Origin: a candidate division WOR-3 bacterium
GTDB taxonomy: Bacteria; Hydrothermota; Hydrothermia; Hydrothermales; JAJRUZ01
Assembly (NCBI GenBank): GCA_039803925.1
Contig: JBDRZL010000005.1
Coordinates: forward strand, 9,969-73,968
DNA: 64,000 bases
Direction: 5' to 3'
The notes below the pieces were generated by a model. The model searched no databases, was not told where the DNA came from, and worked only from the letters and a program-made list of their open reading frames with translations. Made by a program: the position numbers and the translations under genes. Shown here piece after piece: positions 9,339 through 32,837 of the stretch. The stretch's first letter is position 1; every line of letters starts with the position of its first letter.

Positions 9339-9340
9339 TT

Positions 9341-13244: not shown

Positions 13245-13245
13245 A

Positions 13246-14019
13246 ATGAAAGGTTTTTTATTTTTTATAATACTCACAAATCAGAGCCCTGAGGAAAGGG
13301 CTGATCTTTACATAAAGCTTGCGGATTATAAAAATGCTGTAATGGAGTATTCTGATTTGATTTTTAAAAAACCTGAAGATAAAAAATTAAGAGAAAAACT
13401 CTTATTCAGTGCAAATAAATATATTGAAAAAAATTTCCTGAAAATGGATAAAGAAATTTTGGAAAAGGCTTTATCAAAGTATAGAAATGGAGAGCTTGAT
13501 TCAGCTTTATATTTATCAAAAATTTTATACGATAAATTTTATTTTGAGCCAGAAGTAGTTACTTTTTATCAAAGATGCTTATGGACAGTTGATACTCTAA
13601 GAAAACTTTATTCCCTTTTAATAGATACTGAAAGGAAAAAAGATTATCAAGCAGCCCACAGGTATGCACTGGAGATTAAAAATATTTATCCCAGTTATCC
13701 TGAAATTGATGAAAAAATAAATTATTACTTTAGTAAAATACCGAAGGTTGAGGAAAAAAGACCCCTCGTAGTTGAAAGAAGGGAGGTAGTGAAAAAACCT
13801 GTTGAAAAACCTGTTGAAGCTGAAAAGGCTATTAAGGTGGAAGAAGATGTTCAGGCAAAAGTTCAGGAACTTTATAAAAGAGGTGTTACACTTTACAGTG
13901 AGGGAAAATTAGAAGAAGCAAGGGAAATTTTTAGAGAGATACTCAAAATTGATCCTCAAAATACAAAAGTAAGGAGAAATCTTGCAGTAATAGAAGAAAG
14001 ATTAAGGGGGAGAAGATAA
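13246..14019 (+). CDS. TPR-like repeat protein (TadD-like accessory?)
   Basis: Helical repeat sequence, C-terminal TPR-like segment LYSEGKLEEAREIFREILKIDPQNTKVRRNLAV. Sits in the Tad operon. Start set to ATG 13246. Confidence 0.45.
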   Translation: MKGFLFFIILTNQSPEERADLYIKLADYKNAVMEYSDLIFKKPEDKKLREKLLFSANKYIEKNFLKMDKEILEKALSKYRNGELDSALYLSKILYDKFYFEPEVVTFYQRCLWTVDTLRKLYSLLIDTERKKDYQAAHRYALEIKNIYPSYPEIDEKINYYFSKIPKVEEKRPLVVERREVVKKPVEKPVEAEKAIKVEEDVQAKVQELYKRGVTLYSEGKLEEAREIFREILKIDPQNTKVRRNLAVIEERLRGRR

Positions 14020-15302: not shown

Positions 15303-17872
15303 ATTTATTTGTCCTTTTTCTTTTGTCCCAAACTATTTCAACACTTGTAGGAGGAGATTATATAAAGTCTTTTCATTCTGGAAAATATGTATACGAGGTC
15401 TCTCAGAGGGGTGTTGCTATTATAAATGTAGAAAAACCACAGGATCCTTTTACCGAATATGAAATACCAACACAGGGAATATCCCTGGATCTTGCAATCT
15501 CAGGTAATAATCTTTATATTCTTGATTCACAGGAAGGAATTATAGTTTATTCTTTAAAAGAGAGAGTTAAGAAAAATACATTCAAAGTTAAAAATGCAAA
15601 TTCAATTATTTCAATTCCTCCTTACTTATATGTCGGGACATCTGATGGTTTTATTGAAATATACGAAGTAAATGGATTTAATTTAAAGGGAAAAGGGAAA
15701 ATTAAGTTAAATGGGCCTCTAAATTCAATTCAAATTGCTCCACAGGGATTAGTAGCACTTGTTTCTGACTCAATTTTATCTCAGATTAAATTTTTGAAAG
15801 AAGGTAACATAACCATAGGTGAAGAATATGTATCTCCATCAAAGCTTACAAAATTTTTAGTTCTTGATACCATCATTTTATTTGGTAAAAAGGAAGGAGG
15901 ATTTTACCTTGGAAAGTTTTCAAAACCTTTTATAGAAATAGTAAAGGAAATTATTCCAACCTATGTAATTACAGGCCTTCAGATCTATGGTTCCCAGGTT
16001 TTTGTGGGAACAGAGGATGGAAGGTTATATCTACTTAGTTACCCTGATTTGAATATTATTTCAACAGCCCAATTGGTTGGTCAGATTAATGATTTTGTTG
16101 CTATTGGTAATATACTTATGGCTTCGGTTGGAAGAGCTGGTATTTCTGTTTTAAGATTACCAGATCTGGAAGAAATCAAAACTCTTGGTGGTTTTGGTTC
16201 CCTTGTATCTGCCAATGTAATGACAAAGGAAGTGCTTTATCTTCTTGATCCTCTTCTTGGAGTAAGATTTATATCTTTCTTTTCTCCCCACGATCCTCAA
16301 AAAGAAGAAGAAACTGAGCTTTTTGGAACTTTTGTGAAGATTTTAAAATTTAAAGATTTGATAATAGCAGTTATAAGGGAAGGTGGAATATGGATTTTAA
16401 ATGCTGATAGAATAAATGAGATAAAAGGGTTTCTCCCAATAGAGGGTTTTATTAATGATTGTATAGACATTGAAAATAAAATTTTTGTTGCTACTGAGAA
16501 GGGTATTATTGGTCTTGAATATAAAGATGGAAAACTATCTGAAACTTTTAATATTAAGACAGATGCGAAAACTTTAAAGTTAATTCAGATTGGTAAAAAA
16601 TTTGCAAGTCTTCAGGAAAATGGTCTTTTTATTTATGATTATGATGGTAAAATCATAGAGCACAAAATGGACATCTCTCCATACTTATACACCTTAAGAG
16701 GTAGAGAGGTTTTTATATGTGATATGACTGGTAAGATTTACAAATTTGAAGAGACACTTCAAAATATGAGTTTTCTTTTTTCTATAAAAGTTCCTGTTAC
16801 TGATTTTGTTGTTGGTAAAAACGAAATATATGTTGCCGATGCAACTAATAAAATAAAAGTTTACTCAATACCCGCAAAAAATTTGAAGTTCAGTTTTGAT
16901 TTACCTGAGCCAGTTTATTATTTAAAAATGAAATATCCTTATTTATTTATCTATGGTGGAAGCGATAGAATTTTCATATATAATGTTGGGAAGGATGTTC
17001 CTGAGTTTGTAAATAGTATAAGAACGAAGAAAGGTATAAGATCACTTGATTTTTCTGAATCAGGTATTTATGTTGGGGAAGAAAGATTTATAGAAACTTA
17101 CAGATTCTATAGATTTGAAGCACCAACAGAAATCTCATATTATTTAACTTACGGAGAACTTTACAGAGCGGTGCCTTTGAAAGAAGATAATGTCCTATAT
17201 ATTGCTGGAGGTTCTTCGGGTTTAATAGGAATTGATTTAACAAATATTTATTCTCCTGAACTCTTCTTTTATCACATACCTTCAGAGGGGGTAACTTATG
17301 ATATTCTGATTTCTCAGAGGTTTTTAATCTGTGCTAACCTTGAAGGAGGAATAGAGGTTTTTGAACTTCTCTCTAATAAAAAACCTAAGTTTTTTACAAG
17401 GATTAAGGGTGATGTTCTTTCAATTGATGTAGTTAATAATACTTTTCTGGTTGCTGGAGATAGAACGGGCATTGTAAAGGTTTATGATATGCGTGGAGGT
17501 GTTTTTTCAAAGATTTCAGAATTTTCTGAGTTTAAATTTCCTGTGCTTGATCTTGAATCATTTGGAAACTATGTTTATGCCTCTTTTGGGGATGAAGGTA
17601 TAGGAATAATTGATTTAAGTGTGCCTCACTTTCCGAGATTGAAAAAAATAATAAATCCTGGTTTTCCTGTATTTAGATTAAAAATTCTCGATGATAGAGT
17701 ATTTGCAATATGTGGTGCTTATGGTATTATTGAGTATAAACTAAAAGAAGATGGAGATTTAATTTATTTAAATCATATAGATACTCCCGGAAATGCCCAA
17801 GATGTAAATAAAATGGAGGATTATTATTTAATTTCTGATACTTATGGGCTTGAAATATATAAAAGGAGGTAA
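15299..17872 (+). CDS. Large beta-propeller repeat protein (LVIVD-type repeats) embedded in Tad locus
   Basis: 857 aa. N-terminal hydrophobic segment, then at least 12 repeats of G-hydrophobic-x-hydrophobic-hydrophobic-(D/N/E/S) blades (GIIVYSLKE, GFIEIYEV, GRLYLLSYPDLN, GISVLRLPDLEEI, GIEVFELLSN, GIVKVYDMRGG, GIGIIDLSVPHFP, GIIEYKLKEDGDL). ATGA overlap with the upstream gene. Confidence 0.55.
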   Translation: MNLFVLFLLSQTISTLVGGDYIKSFHSGKYVYEVSQRGVAIINVEKPQDPFTEYEIPTQGISLDLAISGNNLYILDSQEGIIVYSLKERVKKNTFKVKNANSIISIPPYLYVGTSDGFIEIYEVNGFNLKGKGKIKLNGPLNSIQIAPQGLVALVSDSILSQIKFLKEGNITIGEEYVSPSKLTKFLVLDTIILFGKKEGGFYLGKFSKPFIEIVKEIIPTYVITGLQIYGSQVFVGTEDGRLYLLSYPDLNIISTAQLVGQINDFVAIGNILMASVGRAGISVLRLPDLEEIKTLGGFGSLVSANVMTKEVLYLLDPLLGVRFISFFSPHDPQKEEETELFGTFVKILKFKDLIIAVIREGGIWILNADRINEIKGFLPIEGFINDCIDIENKIFVATEKGIIGLEYKDGKLSETFNIKTDAKTLKLIQIGKKFASLQENGLFIYDYDGKIIEHKMDISPYLYTLRGREVFICDMTGKIYKFEETLQNMSFLFSIKVPVTDFVVGKNEIYVADATNKIKVYSIPAKNLKFSFDLPEPVYYLKMKYPYLFIYGGSDRIFIYNVGKDVPEFVNSIRTKKGIRSLDFSESGIYVGEERFIETYRFYRFEAPTEISYYLTYGELYRAVPLKEDNVLYIAGGSSGLIGIDLTNIYSPELFFYHIPSEGVTYDILISQRFLICANLEGGIEVFELLSNKKPKFFTRIKGDVLSIDVVNNTFLVAGDRTGIVKVYDMRGGVFSKISEFSEFKFPVLDLESFGNYVYASFGDEGIGIIDLSVPHFPRLKKIINPGFPVFRLKILDDRVFAICGAYGIIEYKLKEDGDLIYLNHIDTPGNAQDVNKMEDYYLISDTYGLEIYKRR

Positions 17873-17875
17873 AAA

Positions 17876-19003
17876 ATGAGACCTAATGTAAGGAGACTTT
17901 TAATAGCTTTATCCCTGGCAGGGATAGCTGCACTTTTATTAATAAGTTATATTCAGGATGTAGAAAGGAAGACTCTAATGAAAGGTGCCCCTGAGAGAGT
18001 TCTTGTAGCAAAAAAAGATATAAGCGCAAGAACAATTATCTCAGAAGATCTTGTAGAATACAGAGAAATTCCTAAACCTTTTATAGAACCACTTGCAGTT
18101 TCAGATATAGGAGAGATTATAGGTATGGTTGCAATAACTGATATAAGAAAGGGGGAACAGATAACAAAAAATTTGCTTTTACCATTACAGACATGGACTG
18201 TTCTTTCTTCCTTTGTTCCCGAAGGTTTTAGAGCTATAACAATTCATGTGGATGAGGTTTCAGGAGTCGGAGGGTTAATACTTCCTGGAGATGAAGTAGA
18301 TGTAGTAGCAACCTTTTCTCTTGAAGATTTAAGGAGATATATTCCAGAACAGGAGCTTGAAAGATATTTAAGAAGTCCTCAACTTTACAGGGTAAGAGGA
18401 CCTTATTCTTCCTTTGCAACAATTACATATAAGGCAGTTAGAGTACTTGCAGTTGGAAGATCACTCCTTGCTTTGCCACCAACAGTTACAGAGAAAAAGA
18501 CAGGTTTTATGGGAATGCCAGAAACACAAGAATTAGAGAGGGTAACTTCAGTTACACTTGCGGTCCCAAAGGAAATTGTAAAAGAGCTTTCTCTTCTTGA
18601 GAAAATTTCAGATATAAGACTTGTTTTAAGGTCTGTGAGAGAGATAAAACTACCAGGTGAGGATACAATAATAGAAAAACCCTTAACTGTATTTGATATC
18701 TTAGAAAAATATAATCCAAAACCAAAACCTAAAAAAGTTGCGAAGGCAGCACCAACTCCAGAGGTTTCTCCTTATTCTTATATAAATATATATAAGAGAA
18801 CAGATTTGGAACAAGTAAAACTAAGAGGAAGTGAAGTAGTTGAACAAAAACCTTGGGGAGAAGGAAGAAGAAAAGGATTTGAACCTGGTCAAATTATGGA
18901 AACTTTTATGGGTTCTTATATGAAGGGAATAGAAAATGTTTTAAAGCAGGCAGGTGTTAAAGTCCCTGCTAATTTACAGGTTCCCTGCGATACCTGTTTT
19001 TGA
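17876..19003 (+). CDS. cpaB: Flp pilus assembly protein CpaB/RcpC (SAF domain)
   Basis: N-terminal TM followed by SAF-domain signature VLVAKKDISARTIISEDLVEYREIPK. Flp-pilus-assembly C-terminal domain. Confidence 0.7.
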   Translation: MRPNVRRLLIALSLAGIAALLLISYIQDVERKTLMKGAPERVLVAKKDISARTIISEDLVEYREIPKPFIEPLAVSDIGEIIGMVAITDIRKGEQITKNLLLPLQTWTVLSSFVPEGFRAITIHVDEVSGVGGLILPGDEVDVVATFSLEDLRRYIPEQELERYLRSPQLYRVRGPYSSFATITYKAVRVLAVGRSLLALPPTVTEKKTGFMGMPETQELERVTSVTLAVPKEIVKELSLLEKISDIRLVLRSVREIKLPGEDTIIEKPLTVFDILEKYNPKPKPKKVAKAAPTPEVSPYSYINIYKRTDLEQVKLRGSEVVEQKPWGEGRRKGFEPGQIMETFMGSYMKGIENVLKQAGVKVPANLQVPCDTCF

Positions 19004-20538
19004 TAAAATATATTAAAAAAATAAGTCCTGAAAAAATAGTTAAAAGATTCGAATATTTTGTAAAAAGGAAATCAAAAACTGAAGCCTTTTTAACTTTTTT
19101 ATCCTTTATAGGTTTAAGATTTTTCTTTGAAACTTTATTAGAATCTGCACATGCTGTTGAAAATAAATTTGATTTTATTTTACATTTTTACCTCTTTTTT
19201 ATAGCACTTTTCATTTTAATTTATATTTATTTAAGGTTTTTTTTTGAAAAAGAATTTATATTTAAACTTATATGTTATGGTTTTTTTATTATAATTTTAC
19301 CCCCTTTTGTTGATTTTATACTATCAGGTGGAAAAGGTTTTGTTTTGAGCTATTTAACAAAAACCTCACAAATACCTACTATATATTTTTCTCTCTTTAC
19401 TTCACCTTTCACAGTAACCTTTGGTGCAACACCAGGAATTAAAATTGAAGTTTTAATTATTGATTTTTTTCTTTCTATTTATCTTTTTTTTAGATTAAGT
19501 GGAATAAAAAAAAAGATTATACCGATTTTAAATTTTTTTATCTTTCCTTTTTTCCCTCTTCTTTTGAGCTCAATTTTTGCTATAGAAGAACTATATTATT
19601 ATTCACTTGTTACTCCGATTTTTATTGCAAAGCCTACAATTCCAAATCTTTTTTTTATAATAATAATCTTAGTTCTTTCTTTTTTTGCTTTTAAAGAATA
19701 TTTTCCAGAAAGAGTAAATATTTTTTCCTTTATATTTCCTTTTATAACTCTTTTAGTAATTGTTTTATATTCTATTAAAATTAGTGAATTTGTTCCGAGA
19801 TTTCTCTTTTTGCCTGGTAATATCCTTTATATTATATTACAAACTCTTTCGGTATTTTTTTTATATATATCCTTTAATAGAGAAAAATTGTACATTTTAC
19901 CTTTAGTCCTATCCTTTCTCTTGATTTCTATCCAATCTTCAGCTACAATAGTTGCTTTTTTTGTTTTTTCATTATGTTTTTATGTTTACAGAAATTACCC
20001 CTTCTTATATAACTTTTTGTTTTTAACTTATTCTTTAATTATAGGACTTACTTTCTTTGCTCTCGGAAGTAAAATTCCTTTTCCTGATTTTAAAAATCAT
20101 ATTTTCAGATTATCAGCGGATTTCTATAAGAAAGAGAAAAAATACTCTAAAGCAATTAATCTTTTATCAAAGATTTCCAAAAAAGAATTCTACGATTACT
20201 TTAAATTATCAGAGTTATCTTTTTTAAATGGGGATTTTATGGATTTTGATATTTTTCTTGAAATTTCACAGATTAAATATATTTCAGCCCCTCCTCACTA
20301 TAGATCAATAGATAATAGGGTAGATTTCTGGAAACTGGAAAAGGAAAGATTCTTGAAAGAAAAAGATTATTCCCTTTTATACATGACAGCACTCTCTGTT
20401 TTAAATCCAAGAGTTGAAAGTGAAAATATACTTAAATTTCTTTATGAATTGAGTGATAATATTGAAGAGAGAGAAAAATTAAAATTGAAAAAATTTTTAG
20501 CTATATATGGGTATAAAAAGTTTTCCACATACCCTTGA
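19000..20538 (+). CDS. Polytopic membrane protein (about 12 TM) with C-terminal soluble helical domain; unknown function
   Basis: Highly hydrophobic F/I/L-rich segments through about aa 360, then a charged helical C-terminal region. ATGA overlap with cpaB. Confidence 0.4.
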   Translation: MIKYIKKISPEKIVKRFEYFVKRKSKTEAFLTFLSFIGLRFFFETLLESAHAVENKFDFILHFYLFFIALFILIYIYLRFFFEKEFIFKLICYGFFIIILPPFVDFILSGGKGFVLSYLTKTSQIPTIYFSLFTSPFTVTFGATPGIKIEVLIIDFFLSIYLFFRLSGIKKKIIPILNFFIFPFFPLLLSSIFAIEELYYYSLVTPIFIAKPTIPNLFFIIIILVLSFFAFKEYFPERVNIFSFIFPFITLLVIVLYSIKISEFVPRFLFLPGNILYIILQTLSVFFLYISFNREKLYILPLVLSFLLISIQSSATIVAFFVFSLCFYVYRNYPFLYNFLFLTYSLIIGLTFFALGSKIPFPDFKNHIFRLSADFYKKEKKYSKAINLLSKISKKEFYDYFKLSELSFLNGDFMDFDIFLEISQIKYISAPPHYRSIDNRVDFWKLEKERFLKEKDYSLLYMTALSVLNPRVESENILKFLYELSDNIEEREKLKLKKFLAIYGYKKFSTYP

Positions 20539-20595
20539 CAAAAATACCCCTTTAAATTTATAATTATATTGAGGGTAAGATAGTGGGAGGTAAAA

Positions 20596-20769
20596 ATGAA
20601 GGTAATAAAATTAATATATAACGAAAAGGGTGAGGCCGCAGTTGAATATGCGGTCTTAATTGGAATTTTTGGATTTCTTGGTATTTTTCTATTAAATTAT
20701 GCTCTTTTCCTCCTCGGAAGTGATCTCCTTTATAAATGGTATAATTTTTTTTACTCATTAAAACCATGA
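20596..20769 (+). CDS. flp: Flp/Fap family pilin (57 aa)
   Basis: RBS GGAGG at 20586. MKVIKLIYNEKGEAAVEYAVLIGIF with the Flp motif G-x-A/T-A-V-E-Y-A then a hydrophobic helix. Below the ORF-track length cutoff. Confidence 0.7.
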   Translation: MKVIKLIYNEKGEAAVEYAVLIGIFGFLGIFLLNYALFLLGSDLLYKWYNFFYSLKP

Positions 20770-20918
20770 AAATCGTAAAAAGGGAAGAAGGTGCTGTTGC
20801 TATCGAGTATGCTCTTATTATAGGAGTGATTGCCCTATTTTCTTATTTGGCCTGGAAAATGTTAGGTTTTGTTTTAAGACTTGTTGTAATGAAGCTTTTA
20901 TATGTTTTATTATGGTAA
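20766..20918 (+). CDS. flp: Flp/Fap family pilin (50 aa)
   Basis: MKIVKREEGAVAIEYALIIGVIALF. ATGA overlap with the previous pilin. Confidence 0.7.
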   Translation: MKIVKREEGAVAIEYALIIGVIALFSYLAWKMLGFVLRLVVMKLLYVLLW

Positions 20919-20931
20919 AGGAGGTCTGAAT

Positions 20932-22347
20932 ATGAGTAAAAAAAGAAGAGGTCAGGTAATGGTAGAGGCAGCAATTGGTATGGCTTTATTTTTGATGCTC
21001 ACTCTTGGTGCCATTGAAACTGCAAGATTTGCTTTGAGGAGAATTCAGATTACTTATGCATCCTTTCAGGCAAATAGGGTTGCTATTGTAAATAAAGGTG
21101 ATACAACTGCTGTTAGAAAGGCACTTCAATCTATTTCAACACACATAAAAGATGCTAAATTTGAGTTAAAGGATGAAGGAGATGAATATTCTTTAGTTGT
21201 TAGAAGAACCTTTCACCCCTTGATTCCTTTTGTTAATGTGGATTCATTAGTTTTTGTAGGTTATTCAAGACTTCCGAAAGGTCATTTTCAGAATAAAGAA
21301 TTTCCTTATAAATATAAAGGTTATAGCACGTATTATCCTGCTTTATGGAATTCTTCAGATATGGAAGATGAAAAGGAAGCTGGAATTTTAACTTATGATA
21401 GGTATTTAAGGGCTTTTATAAGGTGTGAGAATAATAGGTATGAGAGGTGGAATCCTGGGTGGGGACCTTTTGGGGAATATGGTGGTGGAGGTGAAGCAGA
21501 AGTCAAGGTTGGTGGAAAGGATGAACCTAATGATCCTTTTCATCTTGGAACATGGTATCCACCTTATGGAATTCTGAGAAACAAAAATCCGGAGAAAGAT
21601 AGAACAGGAAATCAAGCTTTAATTGACCAGTATTATTTTGTTGAAGCAATGTTAATAGGACCATCTTTTTCTCCCTTTTTGACTTTTTATCCTGAGAATA
21701 AACCTTACTGGTCAAGGGCAATTACTGGATTTGGTCATGGTAATAATATAAATAAGGGTAGTGATGCTCATCCTTACAGGGGAGATTTCCTGGAATATTT
21801 TTATTCTCAGGGATATGCTATACCAGGATGGTTTGGTTTCTGGCCAAGGTATGAGGCATTATGGTGGACACCTGTAGGTTGTGCTGACCTTGTTACAGGA
21901 ATTTACTATATAGGAATGGGTAATCAGTGGTTTTCAGATCCATGGGGAGAGTATTACAAAGATGAGGACAATTATATTTCAGGGTGGGGAACAGCATATG
22001 CTGATGCCTGTTGGGATCCGATTCGTACTCCATGGGGATGTATCCCTGGAGCAGGAGTTGGTGATGATTTTCAATTTACAATTTTTAATGGATGGTTTGC
22101 AAATTACAGGGGAACCGGCTCACCCTGGGACTGGAAAGGGACAAGGAGACTTTATGATGCTGCTTTTTATGTAGCTACTTTTAATGAGATTGAATGGATA
22201 TATATGGTTGAAGGTTTTATGGTAGATCATCCTGATCACGGAAAATCTCTTCCTTTTAAGGATGATTTAAGGGGATGGGGGACAAAGTGGGATTGTTTAT
22301 GGTATGAAAGCCCATGGGATGAGTGGGATGGCACAGAAAAACAATAA
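20932..22347 (+). CDS. TadE-like pseudopilin with large Trp/Gly/Tyr/Pro-rich C-terminal domain
   Basis: RBS AAAGGAGG. N-terminus RRGQVMVEAAIGMALFLMLTLGAIE is the TadE motif. The C-terminal ~300 aa carries about 24 Trp (WNPGWGPF, GWFGFWPRYEALWW, SPWDWKG, RGWGTKWDCLWYESPWDEWDG). Confidence 0.6.
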   Translation: MSKKRRGQVMVEAAIGMALFLMLTLGAIETARFALRRIQITYASFQANRVAIVNKGDTTAVRKALQSISTHIKDAKFELKDEGDEYSLVVRRTFHPLIPFVNVDSLVFVGYSRLPKGHFQNKEFPYKYKGYSTYYPALWNSSDMEDEKEAGILTYDRYLRAFIRCENNRYERWNPGWGPFGEYGGGGEAEVKVGGKDEPNDPFHLGTWYPPYGILRNKNPEKDRTGNQALIDQYYFVEAMLIGPSFSPFLTFYPENKPYWSRAITGFGHGNNINKGSDAHPYRGDFLEYFYSQGYAIPGWFGFWPRYEALWWTPVGCADLVTGIYYIGMGNQWFSDPWGEYYKDEDNYISGWGTAYADACWDPIRTPWGCIPGAGVGDDFQFTIFNGWFANYRGTGSPWDWKGTRRLYDAAFYVATFNEIEWIYMVEGFMVDHPDHGKSLPFKDDLRGWGTKWDCLWYESPWDEWDGTEKQ

Positions 22348-22358
22348 GGAGGTGTGAT

Positions 22359-23378
22359 ATGAAGAAAAGAAAAGGTGCAATTTTAGTTTTTGGTATTTTT
22401 TTCATGTTGATAGTTTTTGCTGTTATGGGTTATGTTTATGAAATGGGAAGAATGACAATTGCAAAGATGAGGGCACAGAATGCGGCTGATGCTTCAGCAA
22501 TGGGAGCTCAAACTGTTCTTTCCAATTTAAGGAATATAGCAACAACTCATTATATGACAGCGGATCTTTTCAGAAGAATTGCAGTTACAACAACATCAAG
22601 AGATTTTCCTTTAAGTATGCCGTGGTTATATATATATCTTATAGGTTATTCCTGGTATAAGAAAGATCTTTTTGTTAATGATTTACCGGATGAAACTGCG
22701 GAAAACTTTGTTAAACTTTATCATTTTCTTTTTCATATTCAGGATTTTGCTGTTACAAGAATGCTTGCTGCTTATGATTCCAAAATATTTTTCAGAGATT
22801 TTATAAAAGAGGAAGCAGAGAATCATTTTCCAGTAACAAGAAATAGAATGAAATGGGTTGCTTGGTTTATGAGTTACTTTAATTTATATGATGAAAATCA
22901 GGTTGAAGGTAACGAAATTGGATGGGTCAATCTAAGATTTGATAAGAACGGTCCAGGGTGGGCTCCACCTGGTTTAAGGGTTGATTATGGTGAGGAAGTT
23001 GATGGGCCTAACCCCCACAGGAGAATAAGAAATAAGCATGATGAGATTGAAATTAATAAAAAACTTAGTAGAGCTTACAGTGAAGCTTATGTCCTTATAC
23101 CACCTTCCAATTTTTTGATGAGGACTTTTGTTTCAAGAAACTGGGGTAAAATTGGTGCAATTAAAGAACCTTTCAGTTTTCTTGAAGGTTTTCCATTTGT
23201 TGTTAGAAGTGATGCTGCTTCGGGTCCCAAAGAATTTTACATAAGAGTGGGTTTGCCAGATATTATACCTTTAATAGGCTCACTTCAGGAAGACGGATAT
23301 TGGACATTTCCACAGCTTATACCTACAATAAGAGTAGAAGGTAATAACCCCATTGAGGGTCAATGGCCTTATCATTAA
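22359..23378 (+). CDS. TadG-like protein (Flp pilus-assembly TadG N-terminal domain)
   Basis: RBS AAGGAGG. MKKRKGAILVFGIFFML...AKMRAQNAADASAMGAQTVL matches the TadG_N pattern (RxxLQNAADAAALAGA). Confidence 0.6.
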   Translation: MKKRKGAILVFGIFFMLIVFAVMGYVYEMGRMTIAKMRAQNAADASAMGAQTVLSNLRNIATTHYMTADLFRRIAVTTTSRDFPLSMPWLYIYLIGYSWYKKDLFVNDLPDETAENFVKLYHFLFHIQDFAVTRMLAAYDSKIFFRDFIKEEAENHFPVTRNRMKWVAWFMSYFNLYDENQVEGNEIGWVNLRFDKNGPGWAPPGLRVDYGEEVDGPNPHRRIRNKHDEIEINKKLSRAYSEAYVLIPPSNFLMRTFVSRNWGKIGAIKEPFSFLEGFPFVVRSDAASGPKEFYIRVGLPDIIPLIGSLQEDGYWTFPQLIPTIRVEGNNPIEGQWPYH

Positions 23379-23395
23379 ATAAAGGGGGTTTTAAA

Positions 23396-24154
23396 ATGAA
23401 GGGTAATAAGATAAAATTAAATAAGAGGAAAGGAACATTTCTGGTAGAACTTGCGATTATACTTCCTATTTTTGTTTTGCTTTTATCCTGGATTTTTATG
23501 TTAGGAATGATATTGCATAGGAAGCAGGTAGTAACTCTTGCAGCAAGAGCAGGAGCTCAGTATGCTGTTTATCCTGATCCTGTATATGGTGAGCGTATGG
23601 CAAAAATGGGGGTATGGATGGCTCTCTCTCAGGGTAAAAGAGATGAGGTTGAAAAGAGGGTTAAAGATGTTTTAAAAAGGAATGGTTTAAATCCAGATAA
23701 GGCAAAAATAAATATTGATTGGTTCCCAGTTCCTTTTGTTCCTCCTTTTAAAGAAGGAAGTGTTCAAAATCCTGGTCAAAACGGAAGAGCAACAGTTCAT
23801 GCTCTTTACACAGACATGTTAGGTGGAAACAACTGTAGCACAAGATGCCATTCAGGACTTGTCAGACAGGAACTTAAGAGAGAGTTTGATGATGATTCAA
23901 GGTATAGATACACAGAATACAGAATTCCATGTGATATATGGGTTGTTAAGGTAAAGGTGGAGTACCCACTTGGAGAATCAATACTCAATCTTTTAAATCC
24001 TATATTCAAATCAGTTGGATTTAAAGGTGATTTAAAACAAGGAAAAGTTGTTGCAAGTTGTGCATTTCCTGCTCCTATGCCTTTTGTCCATGTTGTTTTA
24101 AAAACACCACCCTTATATAAAGCATTATTTGACATTTCAACATACTTTAAGTAG
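23396..24154 (+). CDS. TadE-like pseudopilin
   Basis: KGTFLVELAIILPIFVLLLSWIF TadE motif. Four Cys in the soluble domain. Confidence 0.6.
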   Translation: MKGNKIKLNKRKGTFLVELAIILPIFVLLLSWIFMLGMILHRKQVVTLAARAGAQYAVYPDPVYGERMAKMGVWMALSQGKRDEVEKRVKDVLKRNGLNPDKAKINIDWFPVPFVPPFKEGSVQNPGQNGRATVHALYTDMLGGNNCSTRCHSGLVRQELKREFDDDSRYRYTEYRIPCDIWVVKVKVEYPLGESILNLLNPIFKSVGFKGDLKQGKVVASCAFPAPMPFVHVVLKTPPLYKALFDISTYFK

Positions 24155-24157
24155 AAT

Positions 24158-24664
24158 ATGAATATGATGAAAAAATTAATTCTAATTTTTTTAATAATGA
24201 TGTTAAACTGTAAGTTTAATAATCCTTTTTATCCAAAAGCTGAAATTGTTGTATCAAGTAATCTTCAGACTATAACTCTGAGTTATGAAATATCGCCAGG
24301 ACAAATAAGGTTAACATATCCAAAATTGAAATTATTTTTCAGAGAGATCTATGGTGGAACTTACGGAATAATTGACTCTGCAAGAGTTGATTACTATTAC
24401 CCAGGTTCAGATCCAATTAGAGATTCTATAGTTGAAACACTTCCCACTTACAGAAAAGGTATTTTACTTTATGTTCCACCTGACAATGAAGTTACAACTG
24501 AGTTTGATTTAGTTACAGATGATGTAGAAAATTTATTTGCCCCTAACAAAGGTAATTTTGAAGGTCCTCTCAATGCTATTATGACATTTTATGGAAAAGA
24601 TGGAAATGAACATAATTTTAAACTTTTTTTAACTTTTACTTTACAAAGAGTTATACCTGATTAA
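24158..24664 (+). CDS. Lipoprotein, Tad locus-associated, unknown function
   Basis: Signal peptide with lipobox MLNCK. 168 aa. Confidence 0.5.
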   Translation: MNMMKKLILIFLIMMLNCKFNNPFYPKAEIVVSSNLQTITLSYEISPGQIRLTYPKLKLFFREIYGGTYGIIDSARVDYYYPGSDPIRDSIVETLPTYRKGILLYVPPDNEVTTEFDLVTDDVENLFAPNKGNFEGPLNAIMTFYGKDGNEHNFKLFLTFTLQRVIPD

Positions 24665-24702
24665 ATGGGTTCAAATCCCAAAAAAACATAGGAGGTTTTA
24701 AG

Positions 24703-24873
24703 ATGAAGTTTTTAAGGTGTGAGAGAGGAGCGACAGCAGTGGAGTATGCGATGATAATAGGGCTTATAGCCCTATTTGCATTTGCTGCCTATAAGGCTCT
24801 TGGAAAGCAGGTTCAGAGGGTGATCCACGAAATGTGGAATAAGATGACAGAAGCCTCTGCTGGGCCTGAGTAA
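24703..24873 (+). CDS. flp: Flp/Fap family pilin (56 aa), copy 1 of duplicated pair
   Basis: RBS GGAGG. MKFLRCERGATAVEYAMIIGLIALFAFAAYKALGKQ... The upstream region and the gene together (24661-24873) are about 98% identical to 25101-25313. Confidence 0.75.
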   Translation: MKFLRCERGATAVEYAMIIGLIALFAFAAYKALGKQVQRVIHEMWNKMTEASAGPE

Positions 24874-24916
24874 TTTTATAAAATTTATGGGGTTCAAATC
24901 CCCCCTGCCCTTTAAG

Positions 24917-25093
24917 ATGATTATGCTAAAAAATATTCTGATAGATGAAAGGGCGGGGACGAGTGTGGAATATGGATTTCTTCTCGGAATTTCTGGTCTC
25001 TCTGCTTTTTATGCTTATGTTGCTAAAAAAGTAGAAGATTTAATAAATGAATTTACAACAAAGTTTTTTTATATATATGCTGGACCTCCATAA
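24917..25093 (+). CDS. flp: Flp/Fap family pilin (58 aa), divergent
   Basis: MIMLKNILIDERAGTSVEYGFLLGISGLSAF. No clear Shine-Dalgarno. Preceded by the GGTTCAAATCC motif. Confidence 0.55.
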   Translation: MIMLKNILIDERAGTSVEYGFLLGISGLSAFYAYVAKKVEDLINEFTTKFFYIYAGPP

Positions 25094-25142
25094 TAGATAT
25101 ATTTTAGGGTTCAAATCCCAAAAAAACATAGGAGGTTTTAAG

Positions 25143-25313
25143 ATGAAGTTTTTAAGGTGTGAGAGAGGAGCGACAGCAGTGGAGTATGCGATGATAATAG
25201 GGCTTATAGCCCTATTTGCATTTGCTGCCTATAAGGCTCTTGGAAAGCAGGTTCAGAGGGTGATCCACGAAATGTGGAATAAGATGACAGAAGCCTCTGC
25301 TGGACCTGAATGA
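25143..25313 (+). CDS. flp: Flp/Fap family pilin (56 aa), copy 2 of duplicated pair
   Basis: Identical to the 24703 gene except for the last codons. The ORF-track N-terminal extension from 25047 is an artifact. Confidence 0.75.
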   Translation: MKFLRCERGATAVEYAMIIGLIALFAFAAYKALGKQVQRVIHEMWNKMTEASAGPE

Positions 25314-25477
25314 TGAAGTTGTTAATAAGGGAAGAAAAAGGTGCATCTGCAGTTGAATATGCGATGCTTATAGGACTTATTTCTCTTTATGCTTTTGCAG
25401 CTTATAGAGCACTTTCAAGGGTGACTTATGCGGTAATAGAGCATATGTGGAATGAATTAACAAAAGCAGGGGGGTAA
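25310..25477 (+). CDS. flp: Flp/Fap family pilin (55 aa)
   Basis: MMKLLIREEKGASAVEYAMLIGLISLYAFAAYRAL. ATGA overlap with the previous pilin. Confidence 0.65.
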   Translation: MMKLLIREEKGASAVEYAMLIGLISLYAFAAYRALSRVTYAVIEHMWNELTKAGG

Positions 25478-25482
25478 TAACT

Positions 25483-25656
25483 ATGAAGAAATTTTTTAAA
25501 AATGAGAAAGGTGCTACTGCTGTTGAATATGCAATGATTATAGGGTTGATAGCATTATTTGCTTTTGCTGCTTATAAGGCACTTGGAAAAGAGGTTCACA
25601 GGATAATTGTATGGATGAAGTTTAAATTTATGACTATCCATGCTGGTCCTGAATGA
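25483..25656 (+). CDS. flp: Flp/Fap family pilin (57 aa)
   Basis: MKKFFKNEKGATAVEYAMIIGLIALFAFAAYKALGKE. Confidence 0.7.
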   Translation: MKKFFKNEKGATAVEYAMIIGLIALFAFAAYKALGKEVHRIIVWMKFKFMTIHAGPE

Positions 25657-26198
25657 TTTATGATATTATTAAGTTCCAAATTGTTGGACTTGTTGTGATA
25701 ATTTCAGTATATACTGATTTAAAATACGGTAAGATTTTTAATAAATTGACATTCCCTTTCTTTTTTACAGGATTTCTTTATAACTTTATGTTTAAAGGAT
25801 TTTCTGGTTTAGTTTCTTCCTTTATAGGTTTTTTGGTATCTTTTATTCCCTTTTTTATATTCTTTCAGCTGGGTGGGGTTGGTGGTGGTGATGTGAAACT
25901 TCTTGCAGGTATAGGTTCCTGGGTTGGTTATCCTCAGGTTCTTTGGATTATTTTTATGACTTCTATTTCAGGTCTTTTTATATCTATCTTGGTGAGTCTT
26001 TTTAAGGGTAAAATTGAATTTGTTTTAAAGGGTGCTTTTAGGGAAGGAAAAGAAAGTGTTAGAAATTTTATCTTTTCTCTATTTACTAAAAATCCAGAAT
26101 TTTTAGATAAAAATAGAGAATTTAAACTTTATGTTCCCTATTCTTTAGCCATAGCATCTGGGACTTTTTTAGGTTTAATAATTAATTTTTCACTATGA
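25653..26198 (+). CDS. tadV: Prepilin peptidase CpaA/TadV (A24 family)
   Basis: Multi-TM protein with the conserved second catalytic Asp in GGGDVKLLAGIG. ATGA overlap with the last flp gene. Confidence 0.75.
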   Translation: MIYDIIKFQIVGLVVIISVYTDLKYGKIFNKLTFPFFFTGFLYNFMFKGFSGLVSSFIGFLVSFIPFFIFFQLGGVGGGDVKLLAGIGSWVGYPQVLWIIFMTSISGLFISILVSLFKGKIEFVLKGAFREGKESVRNFIFSLFTKNPEFLDKNREFKLYVPYSLAIASGTFLGLIINFSL

Positions 26199-26284
26199 GA
26201 GTTCAAATCTCCCTAACCCGCATATATAAAAAAGAAATTAAAAAAGCGGGTTTAAAAGAGATTTTTATAATGGAGGTTTGAAGT

Positions 26285-29260
26285 ATGTATTTATTCTTTC
26301 TTATATCTTTTATCTCTTTAAATGGAGATTTTAACAGGGTTTATATTCCTTCAAAAGAACTTTTAAAACCTTGTGCTAAGTATGCCCCCTCTTATGCAAC
26401 TGAAATTTTAAATTCTGAGTTTGGAGAAAGTGCTTTCGTGTTATTTGGTAATTTTGGGTTTCCAAGACTTATTTCAAATTTTGAGCTCTCTGTTCCAGGG
26501 AAAAATGGACTGGAAAAAGCATATAACTTCTTAAGTTTAAAAGGGGAAGTATTAGGAATAGATTATAAGTATCTTTCCTTAATAAAGAGCATAGAAGATG
26601 AGTTAGGGTATACTCATGTAATTTTTGAGGAAGTTATAAATGGGATAAGGATTGAAAATTCTTTTGTAGGAGTTCATATAAATAAGAGAGGTAATGTTTA
26701 TTATGTCTCTTCTGATTACTTTCCTTATGATGGGACTCCTCTTAAAACTAATTCCAGAATAACAGAAAGAGAAGCTTTAAGTATTATTTATTCTGACCTT
26801 AGCTTAAAGGTTTTTCCAGAAGAGTATAAGAGCGAGCTTGTTTATTATCCTTATGAAAATTCCCTTATTCTTGTTTATAAAATAAGGTTTGTTTCAGAAT
26901 ATCCACTCGGTGATTTTGTTTATTACATTGATGCAATAAATGGTTCAATTGTTGAAAGGAGAAATGAATTAAAATCTGTTTATGGCTATGTATATGGATG
27001 GTGTTTCCCAAATACTGGTGCTGATGGACTTCAGAAGTATCCGATGGCAAACCAGTATGTTTATATTGGTTCTTCAACAGCCACAACAAATTCAAGTGGA
27101 TACTATTCAAGTTCAACTTCTGGAAACATAACAGCTTATCTTGAAGGTCCCTATGTTAAAGTTTTTAACGATGATAATCCACCTGGAAGAGCAGTTTTTA
27201 CTTCTTCTGGAGGTTCGGTAACATATACTGTTCAAAACGTATCTTACACATGGGATAATACTACCACTTCAACTGGTTTAACAGGTGATGATCAGACAAA
27301 GCAGTTTACTCTTCCCTTTTCTTTCCCCTTCTATGGAAAGAATTATTCATCAGTTTATATTTGCACAAATGGATTTTTAAGTTTTACTTCTAATTCAAAC
27401 AAGTATACACCTGACCCTATTCCCAATACCAATGCTCCAAATGCTCTTATAGCTGTTTTCTGGAGAGACCTTAATCCTGCTGCAGGTGGTGGTTCAATAA
27501 CCTATTATTCTGGTTCAGATAAGTTTGTTGTTACCTGGGATAACATTAAAAATTACAGTAATTCAAACAGACAGAGTTTTCAGGTGGTTTTGTATCCTAA
27601 TGGTAATATAGAATTTAGATATAAGTCAATAACCAATGACTATACAACTACAAGGGGTGTAGAAAATGAAAACGGAACAGCTGGTGTTACAGTTTCAACA
27701 CCTTCAAATAATACTGCATATAGATTAGTTCCGCAACAGGGTGGGGGAGGAAGTGAAGTTTCATGGGAGTGGAAGTATCCTTCTGACGAATCAACAGAGG
27801 GTAAACATACAACTGAGGTTATGGTGTTTTATCATGTGAACAAAATACATGATTTTTATAAAGGAACCTTCGGTTTTACAGGAATGGATTATCAGATTCA
27901 GGCAACTGTTTATTCTCACTCAGTGGACCAACATTATCAGGGAGCTAATGCTTATTATTATAATGGAACAATGCATTTTGGAAGGGGAAATTCAAGTTAT
28001 CAAATTCAGAATATGGCAAGGTCTGCTGATGTTATATACCATGAATACACGCATGGAGTTGTAGATAAGATTTATGCAAATGCAGGTGGTTTACCATATA
28101 GTGGACAGTCAGGTGCTATGAATGAAGCATGGGCTGATTATTGGGCATGCACTCAATCAGGTGACCCTGTTATGGGAGAATGGGTTATGCCATCCCAGTA
28201 CCAGAGAAATTTGCAGAATAATTATAAGTATCCTGATGACTGGGTGGGGGAGGTTCATGATGATTCAAGAATTTATTCAGGTGCATTATGGGATTTCAGG
28301 ACATATACTGATAAAACAACTGCTGATAGAGTAACGTGGAGAGCTTATACCTACTATCCAAAAGATTTTCTTGCTGGTAGAAATGCAATGATTCAGGCTG
28401 ATAAGGATCTCTATGGAGGTTCTCATGAAAGTCAAATAATTCAAGCTTTTGCAAGACACGGGATAGGTGGTTCAAGTGCAAGGTATGATATGAGGCAGGC
28501 TTCTTATTCATGGGTTACAACTTCAACACCTACAGGAATAACAGGTGATGATCAAACAATCAAATTCACCCTTCCTTTCTCATTCACTTTCTTTGGTTCC
28601 TCTTATTCTTCAGTATATGTTTGCAGTAACGGATGGCTTTCCTTCACCTCAAATTCTACATCCTATACACCTCAGAATATGCCCAATTCCACAGCTCCAA
28701 ATGCAGTTATTGCTCCTTACTGGAGAGACCTCTATCCACCTGATACAACTCAGGGAGCAAAGATAACCTATGCTTCCAATTCATCATATTTTGCTGTAAC
28801 CTGGTATAAAATTAAGAATTATTCTAATGCTAACAAACAAACCTTTCAGGCTATACTTTACAAAAATGGAACAATAAGGTTTAATTATCAGACTGTTACT
28901 GATGAATATACAACAGCTGTTGGTATTGAGGATGCAAATGGAGTTAATGCTTATCTTTATGCATATGGAACAGGAAGTGTCCTTCCAAGGAGTAACTCAG
29001 CAATAGAATTTGTTCCTCAATCTCAGGTTAGTGTGTTTGCATCAGCTGGAGAGAAGGGAGATATTAAATTTATTGGTAACAGGGAAGTTTATGAACTTAT
29101 TGAAAGCCCCTATTCAAAATTTGATGTATATGATGTTTCAGGTAGAAAGTTAAGTGTTTCAGAATTCAAAAAGATTAAAAATAATGGTTCAGGAGTTTAC
29201 TTCCTTATTCCCTATAATTACAAAGAGAAAAACATAAATAAAGTTGTGATTGTGAAATGA
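26285..29260 (+). CDS. Secreted thermolysin-like (M4/M36-type gluzincin) metalloprotease with duplicated ~150-aa accessory domains and a T9SS C-terminal sorting domain
   Basis: Signal peptide. HEYTHGV (HExxH) plus downstream GAMNEAWADYWA Glu-zincin motif. An N-terminal propeptide-like region. Two internal repeats, TG(L/I)TGDDQT..FTLPFSF.F.G..YSSVY.C.NG.LSFTSNS..YTP...PN..APNA.IA..WRDL, at about aa 320-470 and 740-890. C-terminal tail YDVSGRKLS...KVVIVK. Confidence 0.7.
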   Translation: MYLFFLISFISLNGDFNRVYIPSKELLKPCAKYAPSYATEILNSEFGESAFVLFGNFGFPRLISNFELSVPGKNGLEKAYNFLSLKGEVLGIDYKYLSLIKSIEDELGYTHVIFEEVINGIRIENSFVGVHINKRGNVYYVSSDYFPYDGTPLKTNSRITEREALSIIYSDLSLKVFPEEYKSELVYYPYENSLILVYKIRFVSEYPLGDFVYYIDAINGSIVERRNELKSVYGYVYGWCFPNTGADGLQKYPMANQYVYIGSSTATTNSSGYYSSSTSGNITAYLEGPYVKVFNDDNPPGRAVFTSSGGSVTYTVQNVSYTWDNTTTSTGLTGDDQTKQFTLPFSFPFYGKNYSSVYICTNGFLSFTSNSNKYTPDPIPNTNAPNALIAVFWRDLNPAAGGGSITYYSGSDKFVVTWDNIKNYSNSNRQSFQVVLYPNGNIEFRYKSITNDYTTTRGVENENGTAGVTVSTPSNNTAYRLVPQQGGGGSEVSWEWKYPSDESTEGKHTTEVMVFYHVNKIHDFYKGTFGFTGMDYQIQATVYSHSVDQHYQGANAYYYNGTMHFGRGNSSYQIQNMARSADVIYHEYTHGVVDKIYANAGGLPYSGQSGAMNEAWADYWACTQSGDPVMGEWVMPSQYQRNLQNNYKYPDDWVGEVHDDSRIYSGALWDFRTYTDKTTADRVTWRAYTYYPKDFLAGRNAMIQADKDLYGGSHESQIIQAFARHGIGGSSARYDMRQASYSWVTTSTPTGITGDDQTIKFTLPFSFTFFGSSYSSVYVCSNGWLSFTSNSTSYTPQNMPNSTAPNAVIAPYWRDLYPPDTTQGAKITYASNSSYFAVTWYKIKNYSNANKQTFQAILYKNGTIRFNYQTVTDEYTTAVGIEDANGVNAYLYAYGTGSVLPRSNSAIEFVPQSQVSVFASAGEKGDIKFIGNREVYELIESPYSKFDVYDVSGRKLSVSEFKKIKNNGSGVYFLIPYNYKEKNINKVVIVK

Positions 29261-29328
29261 AAAAAATATATTATATTACTAATAAAAAGGGTTCAAATCC
29301 CTTTTAAATTTAAAAAGGAGGTTTAAAT

Positions 29329-29997
29329 ATGAGGAAAATTTTTGCAGGAGCAATGATGCTCCTCCTTGTGCTTTCAGGATGTAAAAAGACAGAAGAAATT
29401 ACAGTTACCAAGGAACCTGGGATAAGGTTTGCAAGTGCAAGTGAAATAGAGGAGAGAGGTGGTTATGCAATTAATCAGGCTGATTTTGAAAAAGTTATTA
29501 ATGCAATGAGGAATGATGAAAGATTTTTGGAAGATATGAAAGCTCTTTCAGGTGGTGGGCTTGAATTTCCAATTCCATGTGATAGATTAATAAGATATAT
29601 TGAAGAACTTGTGGGAGTTGATCTTTCTAATGCAAGATGCAAGGCAAGGGGAAAATTCATGTATAAACCATCCTTTGACCTCTGGATTGCAGGACAGCTT
29701 GCTTATGCAATAGATTTATATGGTTATCTTGGAGCAGCCGGTTACGCAGGTTTTTCCGGTTCAATTGCTGGTGCACAGGAACTTGGGCTTTTGACAATAG
29801 TATATATAAACAATCAGCTGGATACAGTAATGATGAACTATAATTATAATGACAACTCCCATGTGGCTTTTAATGCTGGATTTGTGGTCTGGACAAGTGA
29901 AACTGGAGGAGTTTCTGTTGATATAACAACTGATCATCAGTTTTCTAACGGTCAATACGACTGGAACCCAGTTTTCCACGCTGTCTATCAGTTTTAA
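29329..29997 (+). CDS. Lipoprotein, unknown function
   Basis: RBS AAGGAGG. Signal peptide with lipobox LSGCKK. Preceded by the GGTTCAAATCC motif. Confidence 0.55.
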   Translation: MRKIFAGAMMLLLVLSGCKKTEEITVTKEPGIRFASASEIEERGGYAINQADFEKVINAMRNDERFLEDMKALSGGGLEFPIPCDRLIRYIEELVGVDLSNARCKARGKFMYKPSFDLWIAGQLAYAIDLYGYLGAAGYAGFSGSIAGAQELGLLTIVYINNQLDTVMMNYNYNDNSHVAFNAGFVVWTSETGGVSVDITTDHQFSNGQYDWNPVFHAVYQF

Positions 29998-30023
29998 GAG
30001 TAAGGCTTAAATTTTTTTATTTA

Positions 30024-30057
30024 TAAGGGGGGGTTAAATTCCCCCTTTTTATTTTTT
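30024..30057 (+). terminator. Rho-independent terminator
   Basis: GGGGGGG-TTAAATT-CCCCC stem-loop followed by a T-run (TTTTTATTTTTT), immediately after the 29997 stop. Confidence 0.7.
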
Positions 30058-31020
30058 ATGTATTTCTTTTTAATTACTATTGTTCTTTTAAAAGAAAAGG
30101 GTATTGTTAAAAATTGGTTTATCCATCAAAAGAAAGATAGTTTTATTATTTACTATACTATTGATAAAAATTTTGATAAATATGCTGAAGAGCTTAAAGT
30201 TTTACGATTTGATATTAAAAACATCAAGGTTAATTCAAAAAGAATATACCGAGATAAAAATGGAATAGGTGATATAAAAATAAAAAATGATACTTTGTTT
30301 TTTTCTCTTTATGATTATTTAAAGGATAAAAAAACAAAAAAATTAAAAAAAATTTTTGTTTATAAAAATGGGAAAATAAAAAAAATTTTTGAAGAAAAAA
30401 GAAAAAATTATTTTTTTTATAAATTTGATTTTTATGAAGACAAAGAAAATAAAGGTATATTAATAGATCAAAGAGGAAAAATAATTTTTTTAAGTAAAGA
30501 TAAAGAAAAAGAAATATCCACAGGGATTTTTCCGGTTTTTTTTAATTCTTATATTTTCTTTATACACGGGAAAGAAGAGGGAAAAGTTAATTCTCTATTC
30601 AAAATAAAAGAAGGTGAAGATAAAAAAGTTGTTTTTGATAGAGAAACAGTTCTTGAAATGGATAAAGAAAATAATTTTCTATTTTTTCTAACAGATAGTG
30701 ATAATGACCTATTGCCTGAAAAGATTTATATTATTGACTCTTTATTAAATTTAAATCTTCTTTTTGAATCAGAAAATCACATAATTATTAAACCATCCTT
30801 CTTTTTAAAAAAAGATACACTTTTTGCCTTATTAAGCTTATCTGAAGAGTTTATACCTGAAAAAATTCTTTTATTGAAAATTCATAAAAATAAAGAAATC
30901 AGTCAAAAAGAAATAATTAAAAGAAAAGGAATTGAAGGGAAATGGTTAAATTATCCCTATATTATCCTTCTTGAAAAGAAAGAGAATTATTCCCTTTTTG
31001 AACTTATTTCACTAAAATAA
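30058..31020 (+). CDS. Lys-rich hypothetical protein
   Basis: 320-aa ORF, low complexity (K/I/F-rich), no RBS at the predicted start. The start is uncertain. Confidence 0.3.
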   Translation: MYFFLITIVLLKEKGIVKNWFIHQKKDSFIIYYTIDKNFDKYAEELKVLRFDIKNIKVNSKRIYRDKNGIGDIKIKNDTLFFSLYDYLKDKKTKKLKKIFVYKNGKIKKIFEEKRKNYFFYKFDFYEDKENKGILIDQRGKIIFLSKDKEKEISTGIFPVFFNSYIFFIHGKEEGKVNSLFKIKEGEDKKVVFDRETVLEMDKENNFLFFLTDSDNDLLPEKIYIIDSLLNLNLLFESENHIIIKPSFFLKKDTLFALLSLSEEFIPEKILLLKIHKNKEISQKEIIKRKGIEGKWLNYPYIILLEKKENYSLFELISLK

Positions 31021-32803: not shown

Positions 32804-32837
32804 TTTTTCCCCCTTTATAATGAAAAGGATTTGAACC

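Follow-up and report, generated by a model that had tools for sequence, protein, structure and literature searches.

The flp1–flp5 pilin array of an uncultured hot-spring bacterium of candidate division WOR-3 contains two genes, flp1 and flp3, that are almost identical in sequence, and the pair is probably best explained by a recent event within a Tad locus in which an old flp3 was overwritten by flp1, 5′ untranslated region (UTR) included. The array was studied in a stretch of 64,000 nucleotides (nt) with a G+C content of 30.8 %, hereafter referred to as the window, which at 8040–26198 carries what is, by its gene content, a complete Tad (type IVc, Flp) pilus locus of a WOR-3/'Ca. Hydrothermales' bacterium. 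All features named below lie on the forward strand unless stated otherwise, and relatives are designated by L numbers. The pair would represent a clean, dated case of concerted evolution in a Tad pilin array, in one lineage of an almost uncultured phylum; a literature search on gene conversion among flp genes yielded no paper.

The two copies are identical over 197 nt (24667–24863 and 25107–25303, 0 differences), with a period of 440 nt, and were recovered in a repeat search as family D1 (208 nt, 99 %). Copy 1 (24667–24873) comprises the hairpin H1, a 5′ UTR with the motif AGGAGG and flp1, while copy 2 (25107–25313) comprises the hairpin H3, the 5′ UTR and flp3. Three differences follow the identical block, at 24864/25304 (G/A), 24870/25310 (G/A) and 24872/25312 (A/G); the first two are synonymous (GGG/GGA and GAG/GAA) and the third changes the stop codon (TAA/TGA). 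The initial annotation had described a block at 24661–24873 repeated at 25101–25313 with 3 nt differing at the 3′ end. The near-identical repeat and its 3′ differences are confirmed, but the block had been started 6 nt too early, as five of the six bases at 24661–24666 differ between the copies.

Comparison with relatives indicates that the five-gene array flp1-flp2-flp3-flp4-flp5 is old. In Ca. Hydrothermales DT_Bin_18 (L018), whose prepilin peptidase is 62–64 % identical to that of the window, flpA-flpB are followed by flp1-flp2-flp3-flp4-flp5-peptidase, and flp3 and flp4 overlap in ATGA as they do in the window. The array reads 1-3-4-5 in L019 and L020, which both carry a diverged flp3-type gene at the flp3 position (in L020 after the same flp1–flp2 spacer as in the window), and 1-4-5 in L024, L027 and L029. 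Nucleotide differences were counted over a protein-identical core of 27 codons (81 nt). Between flp1 and flp3, this core differs at 14 positions in L018, all of them silent, and at 15 in both L019 and L020, and window flp1 and flp5 differ at 16 positions with no amino acid change, whereas flp1 and flp3 of the window do not differ at all (0/81). The 'recent duplication' proposed in the initial annotation is thus not upheld, because the flp1/flp3 pair, with flp2 between its members, was already present and diverged in L018; the 'ongoing gene conversion' offered there as the alternative is the reading favoured by the contrast between 0/81 in the window and 14–15/81 in the relatives.

The direction and age of the event can also be read from these comparisons. 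The shared Flp1/Flp3 sequence is 82 % identical to L018 Flp1, 75 % to L018 Flp3 and 95 % to L024 Flp1, and the UTR of the repeat matches the flp1 UTR of L020; since both sequence and UTR are of the flp1 type, copying appears to have proceeded from flp1 to flp3. The flp1 genes of the window and of L003, a contig approximately 95 % identical to the window, differ at nine silent codons, which places the conversion after the split of these two lineages. Moreover, all three differences between the copies fall within the last 10 of 207 nt, for which the chance of three random hits is (10/207)^3, or ~1e-4, and such 3′ clustering is expected at the end of a conversion tract. The proposed event would have been the non-reciprocal recombination (gene conversion) of a tract of approximately 200 nt from flp1 onto its old paralogue flp3, extending from the conserved intergenic hairpin, whose first base would mark the 5′ end, across the 5′ UTR and ending at most 10 nt short of the stop codon. 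On this account, flp3 would have retained only its own last bases and the ATGA overlap with flp4, and the outcome would be two identically expressed flp1 cistrons, likely a higher dose of Flp1, and the loss of the Flp3 variant.

The same repeat might also have arisen if an ancestor with a flp1-(flp2)-flp4-flp5 array, in which no older flp3 was present, doubled the hairpin-UTR-flp1 unit by unequal crossing-over. Such a de novo tandem duplication would fit the 1-4-5 arrays of L024, L027, L029 and same-species contigs, as well as a deep phylogeny (peptidase tree) without a resolved order, and the 13-nt hairpins could offer microhomology. It is nevertheless unlikely, given that L018 matches the five-gene array of the window in content and order, down to the flp2 orthologue that separates flp1 from flp3 and the overlap of flp3 with flp4, that L020 (approximately 95 % identical in the flanks) carries its diverged flp3-type gene after the shared spacer, and that the three differences are clustered as at a tract end.

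Several points weigh against a recent conversion of an old flp3. The peptidase tree by which array gain and loss were to be polarised has bootstrap values below 25 % for every grouping, three relatives (the 1-4-5 arrays) have neither flp2 nor flp3, and these two genes might have been gained by transfer rather than by common ancestry. The peptidase profile search behind this comparison yielded three loci in genome contigs and 80 in metagenomes, of which only L027–L029 were near enough for the arrays to be compared. The flp3 of L018 has no upstream hairpin, so that conversion requires the assumption that the common ancestor of the window and L020 had the necessary 5′ homology. Four contigs from metagenome-assembled genomes (MAGs; L001–L004) lack the 440-nt unit and join the repeat straight to flp4, a three-gene form that reflects either a genuine deletion or collapse by the assembler. 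Within the collection, the assembly of the window is alone in having all five flp genes on one contig, the copy number in the source sample was judged from contigs rather than reads, and the major and minor subunit roles, like the benefit of dosage, are deduced from sequence.

The contig evidence bears on a further possibility, namely that the assembly of the window created the 440-nt unit falsely, by expansion or as a chimera of two strains, and that the true array is flp1-flp4-flp5. In its favour are the four MAG contigs in the three-gene form, at 95–99.98 % identity, and the position of the window as the only contig seen with all five genes. Public assemblies were searched for the exact sequences of Flp1, Flp2, Flp4 and the peptidase, and the contigs were aligned to the window. 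The exact sequences of junction A, where copy 1 passes into flp2, and of junction B, where flp2 passes into copy 2, are both present in L005 (GCA_039803845.1), a contig that carries flp1 and flp2 and stops 127 nt into copy 2. Junction B is also present in L006/L012 (GCA_039803785.1), in L011 (GCA_039803965.1) and in five similar contigs, all of which begin inside flp2 and continue through junction B, flp3, flp4 and flp5. Furthermore, the Logan contigs L014 and L015 begin at 25274, 30 nt before the first copy-specific base, a break that is expected for k = 31 when both repeat tails are present in the reads. These junctions in independent contigs and the contig ends inside the repeat at k-mer distances contradict an assembly artefact, the finding that, according to the initial annotation, would have overturned the duplication. 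The conserved flp2 orthologue at the same place in L018 points in the same direction, and so does a hybrid tail in L002, which suggests that reads of both copies are present in that sample. An artefact is therefore extremely improbable, and the duplicate is real in this species.

The hybrid tail itself lies at the equivalent of 25304–25312 in L002/L009 (GCA_039803885.1) and reads GGG...GAATGA, following copy 1 at the first variable site and copy 2 at the two later ones; in the remaining collapsed contigs, the tail is of the copy-2 type throughout. Reads of both copies, or a different tract end, are the easiest explanation of the hybrid. Under conversion, the event would leave a 197-nt direct repeat, and either recombination across it or assembler collapse would produce the three-gene form in some MAGs. 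Because assemblies of MAGs from this species are interrupted or collapsed at this repeat, they are not a reliable source of pilin copy numbers.

The conservation of Flp1 suggests what the conversion may have achieved. Mature Flp1 is the most conserved protein of the locus, at 98–100 % identity across lineages whose peptidases are 61–66 % identical. Against L024 (peptidase ~61 % identical) it shows no amino acid change, at 100 % identity, with 17 of 57 codons silently different, and against L029 a single amino acid change. Horizontal transfer as the source of these near-identical proteins in L024 and L029 was rejected, as 17–19 of 57 codons differ silently. Flp1 is taken as the probable major pilin because its gene has the strongest ribosome-binding site and its mature sequence is almost invariant. 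The seven prepilins would be cut after Gly (Ala in flp2) of G/xxxxEY by the A24 peptidase encoded directly downstream and assembled by the TadZ-TadA/TadB/TadC motor through an RcpA-type secretin; FlpA and FlpB, whose genes are presumably transcribed together with the TadE/TadG pseudopilin genes from a conserved promoter, and Flp2, Flp4 and Flp5 would be minor or alternative subunits. The initial annotation had pointed to pilin diversification or dosage. For the flp1/flp3 pair, diversification is not borne out, as the event erased a divergent paralogue in favour of the most conserved mature pilin of the locus. Conversion would rather serve dosage or homogenisation, a higher Flp1 dose being plausible, which suggests that selection is concerned here with how much of an almost invariant major pilin is made rather than with how varied it is.

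Variation within the cassette is found instead in the 165-aa protein encoded next to the array and in Flp3/Flp4. When the window is compared with L020, identity is 93–99 % for flanking proteins but 86 % for Flp1, 78 % for Flp4 and 74 % for the product of the 165-aa open reading frame (ORF), which of all genes in the locus diverges most between close lineages. A side observation concerns L003 and L020, which are ~100 % identical in the flanks and 75–92 % across 24097–25616 (the 165-aa ORF and the flp array), a region in which L003 is 98–99 % like the window. This looks like cassette-like replacement of the whole transcription unit by recombination, with MAG chimerism as a caveat.

Array content that differs in this manner among close lineages, together with the one conversion event and the different tract end of L002, would also be in keeping with programmed pilin variation, in which paralogues act as donor cassettes that rewrite an expressed pilin, as in Neisseria pilE/pilS, and the identical pair is a snapshot of that process. 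The likeness to Neisseria lies in gene conversion between pilin paralogues. However, the pilE/pilS system relies on promoterless, truncated silent cassettes, whereas the seven flp genes are all complete ORFs with start codons, conserved as proteins in distant relatives. Similarly, the expressed Neisseria pilin is a hypervariable mosaic, while mature Flp1, the product of the gene that was copied, is nearly invariant as its silent sites diverge, and the paralogue cores of L018, L019 and L020 are not mosaics of each other. Only a single event has been seen, and programmed variation is very unlikely.

The proposed conversion of flp3 by flp1 has counterparts elsewhere. In bacteria, concerted evolution by gene conversion is exemplified by tufA/tufB in Salmonella and by rRNA operons, in which, as proposed for the window, non-reciprocal recombination keeps or renders old paralogues identical at silent sites and leaves a sharply bounded tract. 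The window differs in that the tract takes in the 5′ UTR and that a pilin variant with a function of its own, at a distance of just 440 nt, was replaced. The flp-tad loci of Aggregatibacter actinomycetemcomitans and Haemophilus ducreyi comprise flp-1/flp-2 or flp1-3, tadV, rcpCAB and tadZABCDEFG. They share with the window tandem small Flps with the G/xxxxEY motif, an A24 peptidase without a methyltransferase domain, the RcpA secretin, RcpC, TadZ/A/B/C and TadE/F/G pseudopilins. In contrast to these loci, that of the window places the machinery first and the pilins and peptidase last, has TadZ and TadA fused and the pilins split 2 + 5, includes several genes without an assigned family, and belongs to a thermophilic WOR-3 host.

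The flp1–flp5 array adds to the known tandem flp arrays and does not change how Tad pili are understood to work. 'Candidatus Liberibacter asiaticus', an alphaproteobacterial insect and plant pathogen, has six consecutive, differentially expressed Flp pilin genes (flp1-flp5 and flp7; RS02385-RS02410) (PMC8312247). Its paralogues stand side by side as in the window, so that a five-gene array is not unusual in itself, but no identical pair was reported among them (PMC8312247). Several flp paralogues per genome were also identified by the GXXXXEY motif in Bdellovibrio and Bacteriovorax, some with deviant N-termini and with roles that are not interchangeable (PMC5430801); in these bacteria the tad locus does not hold every flp gene, whereas that of the window holds all seven. 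Paralogues of flp are likewise found in Bradyrhizobium (PMC12918737). The first cultured WOR-3 bacterium, isolate sy37, a different organism from that of the window, is diderm and pili were seen on it (PMC12285271), which fits with a secretin-containing Tad system.

The initial annotation had identified seven flp genes in two arrays, two at 20596–20918 and five at 24703–25656, and all seven ORFs were recovered (50–58 aa); their assignment as Flp pilins is likewise supported by small ORFs with the motif, located inside a complete tad locus next to an A24 peptidase. In line with the Flp pattern of a short basic leader, G/xxxxEY and a hydrophobic helix (PMC5430801), G-x4-E-Y followed by a hydrophobic stretch is present in six of the seven, with A-x4-EY in flp2, and a motif scan of the whole window gave no flp candidates beyond these. 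With the PF04964 gathering threshold at 32.2 bits, flp1/flp3 (33.0 bits) and flp5 (36.9 bits) score above it and flp4 (24.6) and flpB (24.4) below, while flpA and flp2 gave no Pfam match. In hhalign, a profile of flpA orthologues matched the Flp1/3/4/5 profile with 96.7 % probability (E 3.6e-10, 23 columns) and flp2 matched the Flp profile with 97.5 % probability (E 5.8e-12, 54 columns). Homologues in candidate division WOR-3/Ca. Hydrothermales sources are named 'Flp family type IVb pilin', and all seven have orthologues conserved in distant relatives.

The first array consists of flpA (20596–20769), encoding a very hydrophobic Flp-like prepilin of 57 aa with a G-x4-EY motif (MKVIKLIYNEKG/EAAVEY...; orthologues in L018, L019, L024 and L020 71–96 % identical), and flpB (20766–20918), encoding a Flp-like prepilin of 50 aa, whose start overlaps the flpA stop in ATGA (orthologues 64–92 % identical). 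The second array begins with flp1 (24703–24873), which encodes a PF04964 prepilin of 56 aa and is preceded by a perfect AGGAGG ribosome-binding site. It is followed by the divergent, Flp-like flp2 (24917–25093), which encodes 58 aa (56 from 24923), is not preceded by a Shine-Dalgarno sequence and has Ala rather than Gly at –1 (ERA/GTSVEYG); its L018 orthologue, at the same position, is 62 % identical and has Gly at –1. The 56-aa protein encoded by flp3 (25143–25313) is 100 % identical to Flp1, and its TGA stop overlaps the ATG of flp4 (25310–25477), which encodes a prepilin of 55 aa that ends in AGG and falls below the PF04964 threshold (orthologues 76–83 % identical). The last gene, flp5 (25483–25656), encodes a PF04964 prepilin of 57 aa (orthologues 72–93 % identical). 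The C-termini are rich in Gly and Pro (AGPE in flp1/3 and flp5, AGPP in flp2, AGG in flp4), and tails of the type A/P-G-P-E, G-P-P or A-G-G are likewise seen in L018, L019, L024 and L029; the FFYIY-x-GPP end is invariant between flp2 and its L018 orthologue.

The locus is regarded as a complete Tad locus because a secretin, a T2SSE ATPase whose N-terminal domain is ParA-like, two T2SSF proteins, RcpC, TadE/Tad proteins and a Peptidase_A24 are all present; in terms of the features that define Tad systems, it contains TadA and TadZ, TadB and TadC, the RcpA/CpaC secretin, RcpC/CpaB and TadE/TadG pseudopilins. The machinery genes lie upstream (8040–19003). The secretin (8040–9338; Pfam Secretin and T2SS-T3SS_pil_N) is followed by a TadZ-TadA fusion of 724 aa (9341–11515; N-terminal AAA_31/CbiA, ParA/MinD-like, and C-terminal T2SSE) and by the T2SSF platform proteins TadB (11509–12345) and TadC (12312–13244), both of which match PF00482. 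Between TadC and RcpC lie a TPR protein (Pfam), a 427-aa ORF (14019–15302) without an assignable family, and an 857-aa beta-propeller protein (15299–17872) with WD40-like matches that are all sub-threshold; RcpC/CpaB itself (17876–19003) has RcpC and SAF matches. A polytopic membrane protein of 512 aa and no family (19000–20538) directly precedes flpA and, like the 427-aa and 857-aa proteins, is conserved in close relatives.

Between the two arrays are a TadE-like pseudopilin of 471 aa (20932–22347, start as in MAG gene calls; PF07811 TadE, E 6.4e-7), a TadG-like pseudopilin of 339 aa (22359–23378; PF13400 Tad, E 1.1e-7), a second TadE-like pseudopilin of 263 or 252 aa (23363–24154; PF07811, E 2.7e-8) and ORF165 (24158–24664), a protein of 165–168 aa with a hydrophobic N-terminus and no Pfam or NCBIfam match. 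NCBIfam likewise had no matching model for any of the Flp-type proteins of the two arrays, for the 512-aa membrane protein or for the 427-aa ORF. The TadV/CpaA-type prepilin peptidase (25653–26198; 181 aa, PF01478, E 7.8e-20) begins at the flp5 stop and consists of the A24 domain only; database sources label it 'A24 family peptidase' and 'prepilin peptidase CpaA'. A side observation is a Cu_amine_oxidN1 domain, which resembles the N-terminal part of copper amine oxidases, at the C-terminus of the Tad secretin.

One promoter and one promoter-like sequence were recognised. Upstream of flpA, a sigma-70-type TTGACA-18-TATAAT (20535–20564) matches the consensus at 12 of 12 positions, and CCCTTGACA-17/18-TATAAT is conserved at this place in L020, L018, L019, L024 and L029. 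A promoter-like TTGACA-17-TAGAAT (24129–24157; 11 of 12 positions) abuts the ATG cluster (24158, 24164, 24167) of the 165/168-aa ORF; it is conserved in L020 and similar in L024, and its position suggests that this ORF may be expressed from a leaderless mRNA.

Each of the first three genes of the second array is preceded by, or separated from its neighbour by, a small hairpin: H1 (24667–24679, GGG-TTCAAAT-CCC) stands before flp1 at the 5′ edge of the identical block, H2 (24890–24902) between flp1 and flp2, and H3 (25107) before flp3. This tRNA T-arm-like motif of 13 nt, RGG-TTCAAAT-CCY, occurs 11 times in the window with up to two mismatches, against 1.7 occurrences expected. The instances on the forward strand are at 24667, 24890, 25107, 26199, 29289, 30031 and 58570, and those on the reverse strand at 121–133, 5691–5703, 18874–18886 and 32826–32838. 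All but one of them lie between genes and share their orientation, in most cases directly after a stop codon and 25–40 nt before the next ATG, and four of the seven two-mismatch variants are compensatory stem changes (AGG/CCT, GAG/CTC). The hairpin before flp1 is conserved in L018, L019, L020 and L024. As ARAGORN found no tRNA in the window, the motif is not part of a tRNA gene, and an Rfam search of 20000–30500 (E <= 1) assigned neither the hairpins nor the UTRs to a known RNA family, its only match being a chance microRNA one. A sigma-70 promoter was rejected on inspection, there being no –10 element at the right spacing, and a free-standing terminator is a weak candidate, with a folding free energy of approximately 0 to –1.9 kcal/mol at 70 °C and a T-run only at the 30025 instance in the window. 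That the hairpin is an undescribed, protein-recognised RNA element of WOR-3, perhaps tuning cistron amounts via mRNA processing or stabilisation, and perhaps also a recombination break point that drives flp gain, loss and conversion, is a quite improbable proposal.

The variant GAG-TTCAAAT-CTC separates the prepilin peptidase gene from that of a 991-aa M4/M36-type metalloprotease with NIDO-like repeats (26285–29260), which follows the peptidase in every close relative examined (L001–L004, L006 and L020–L023).

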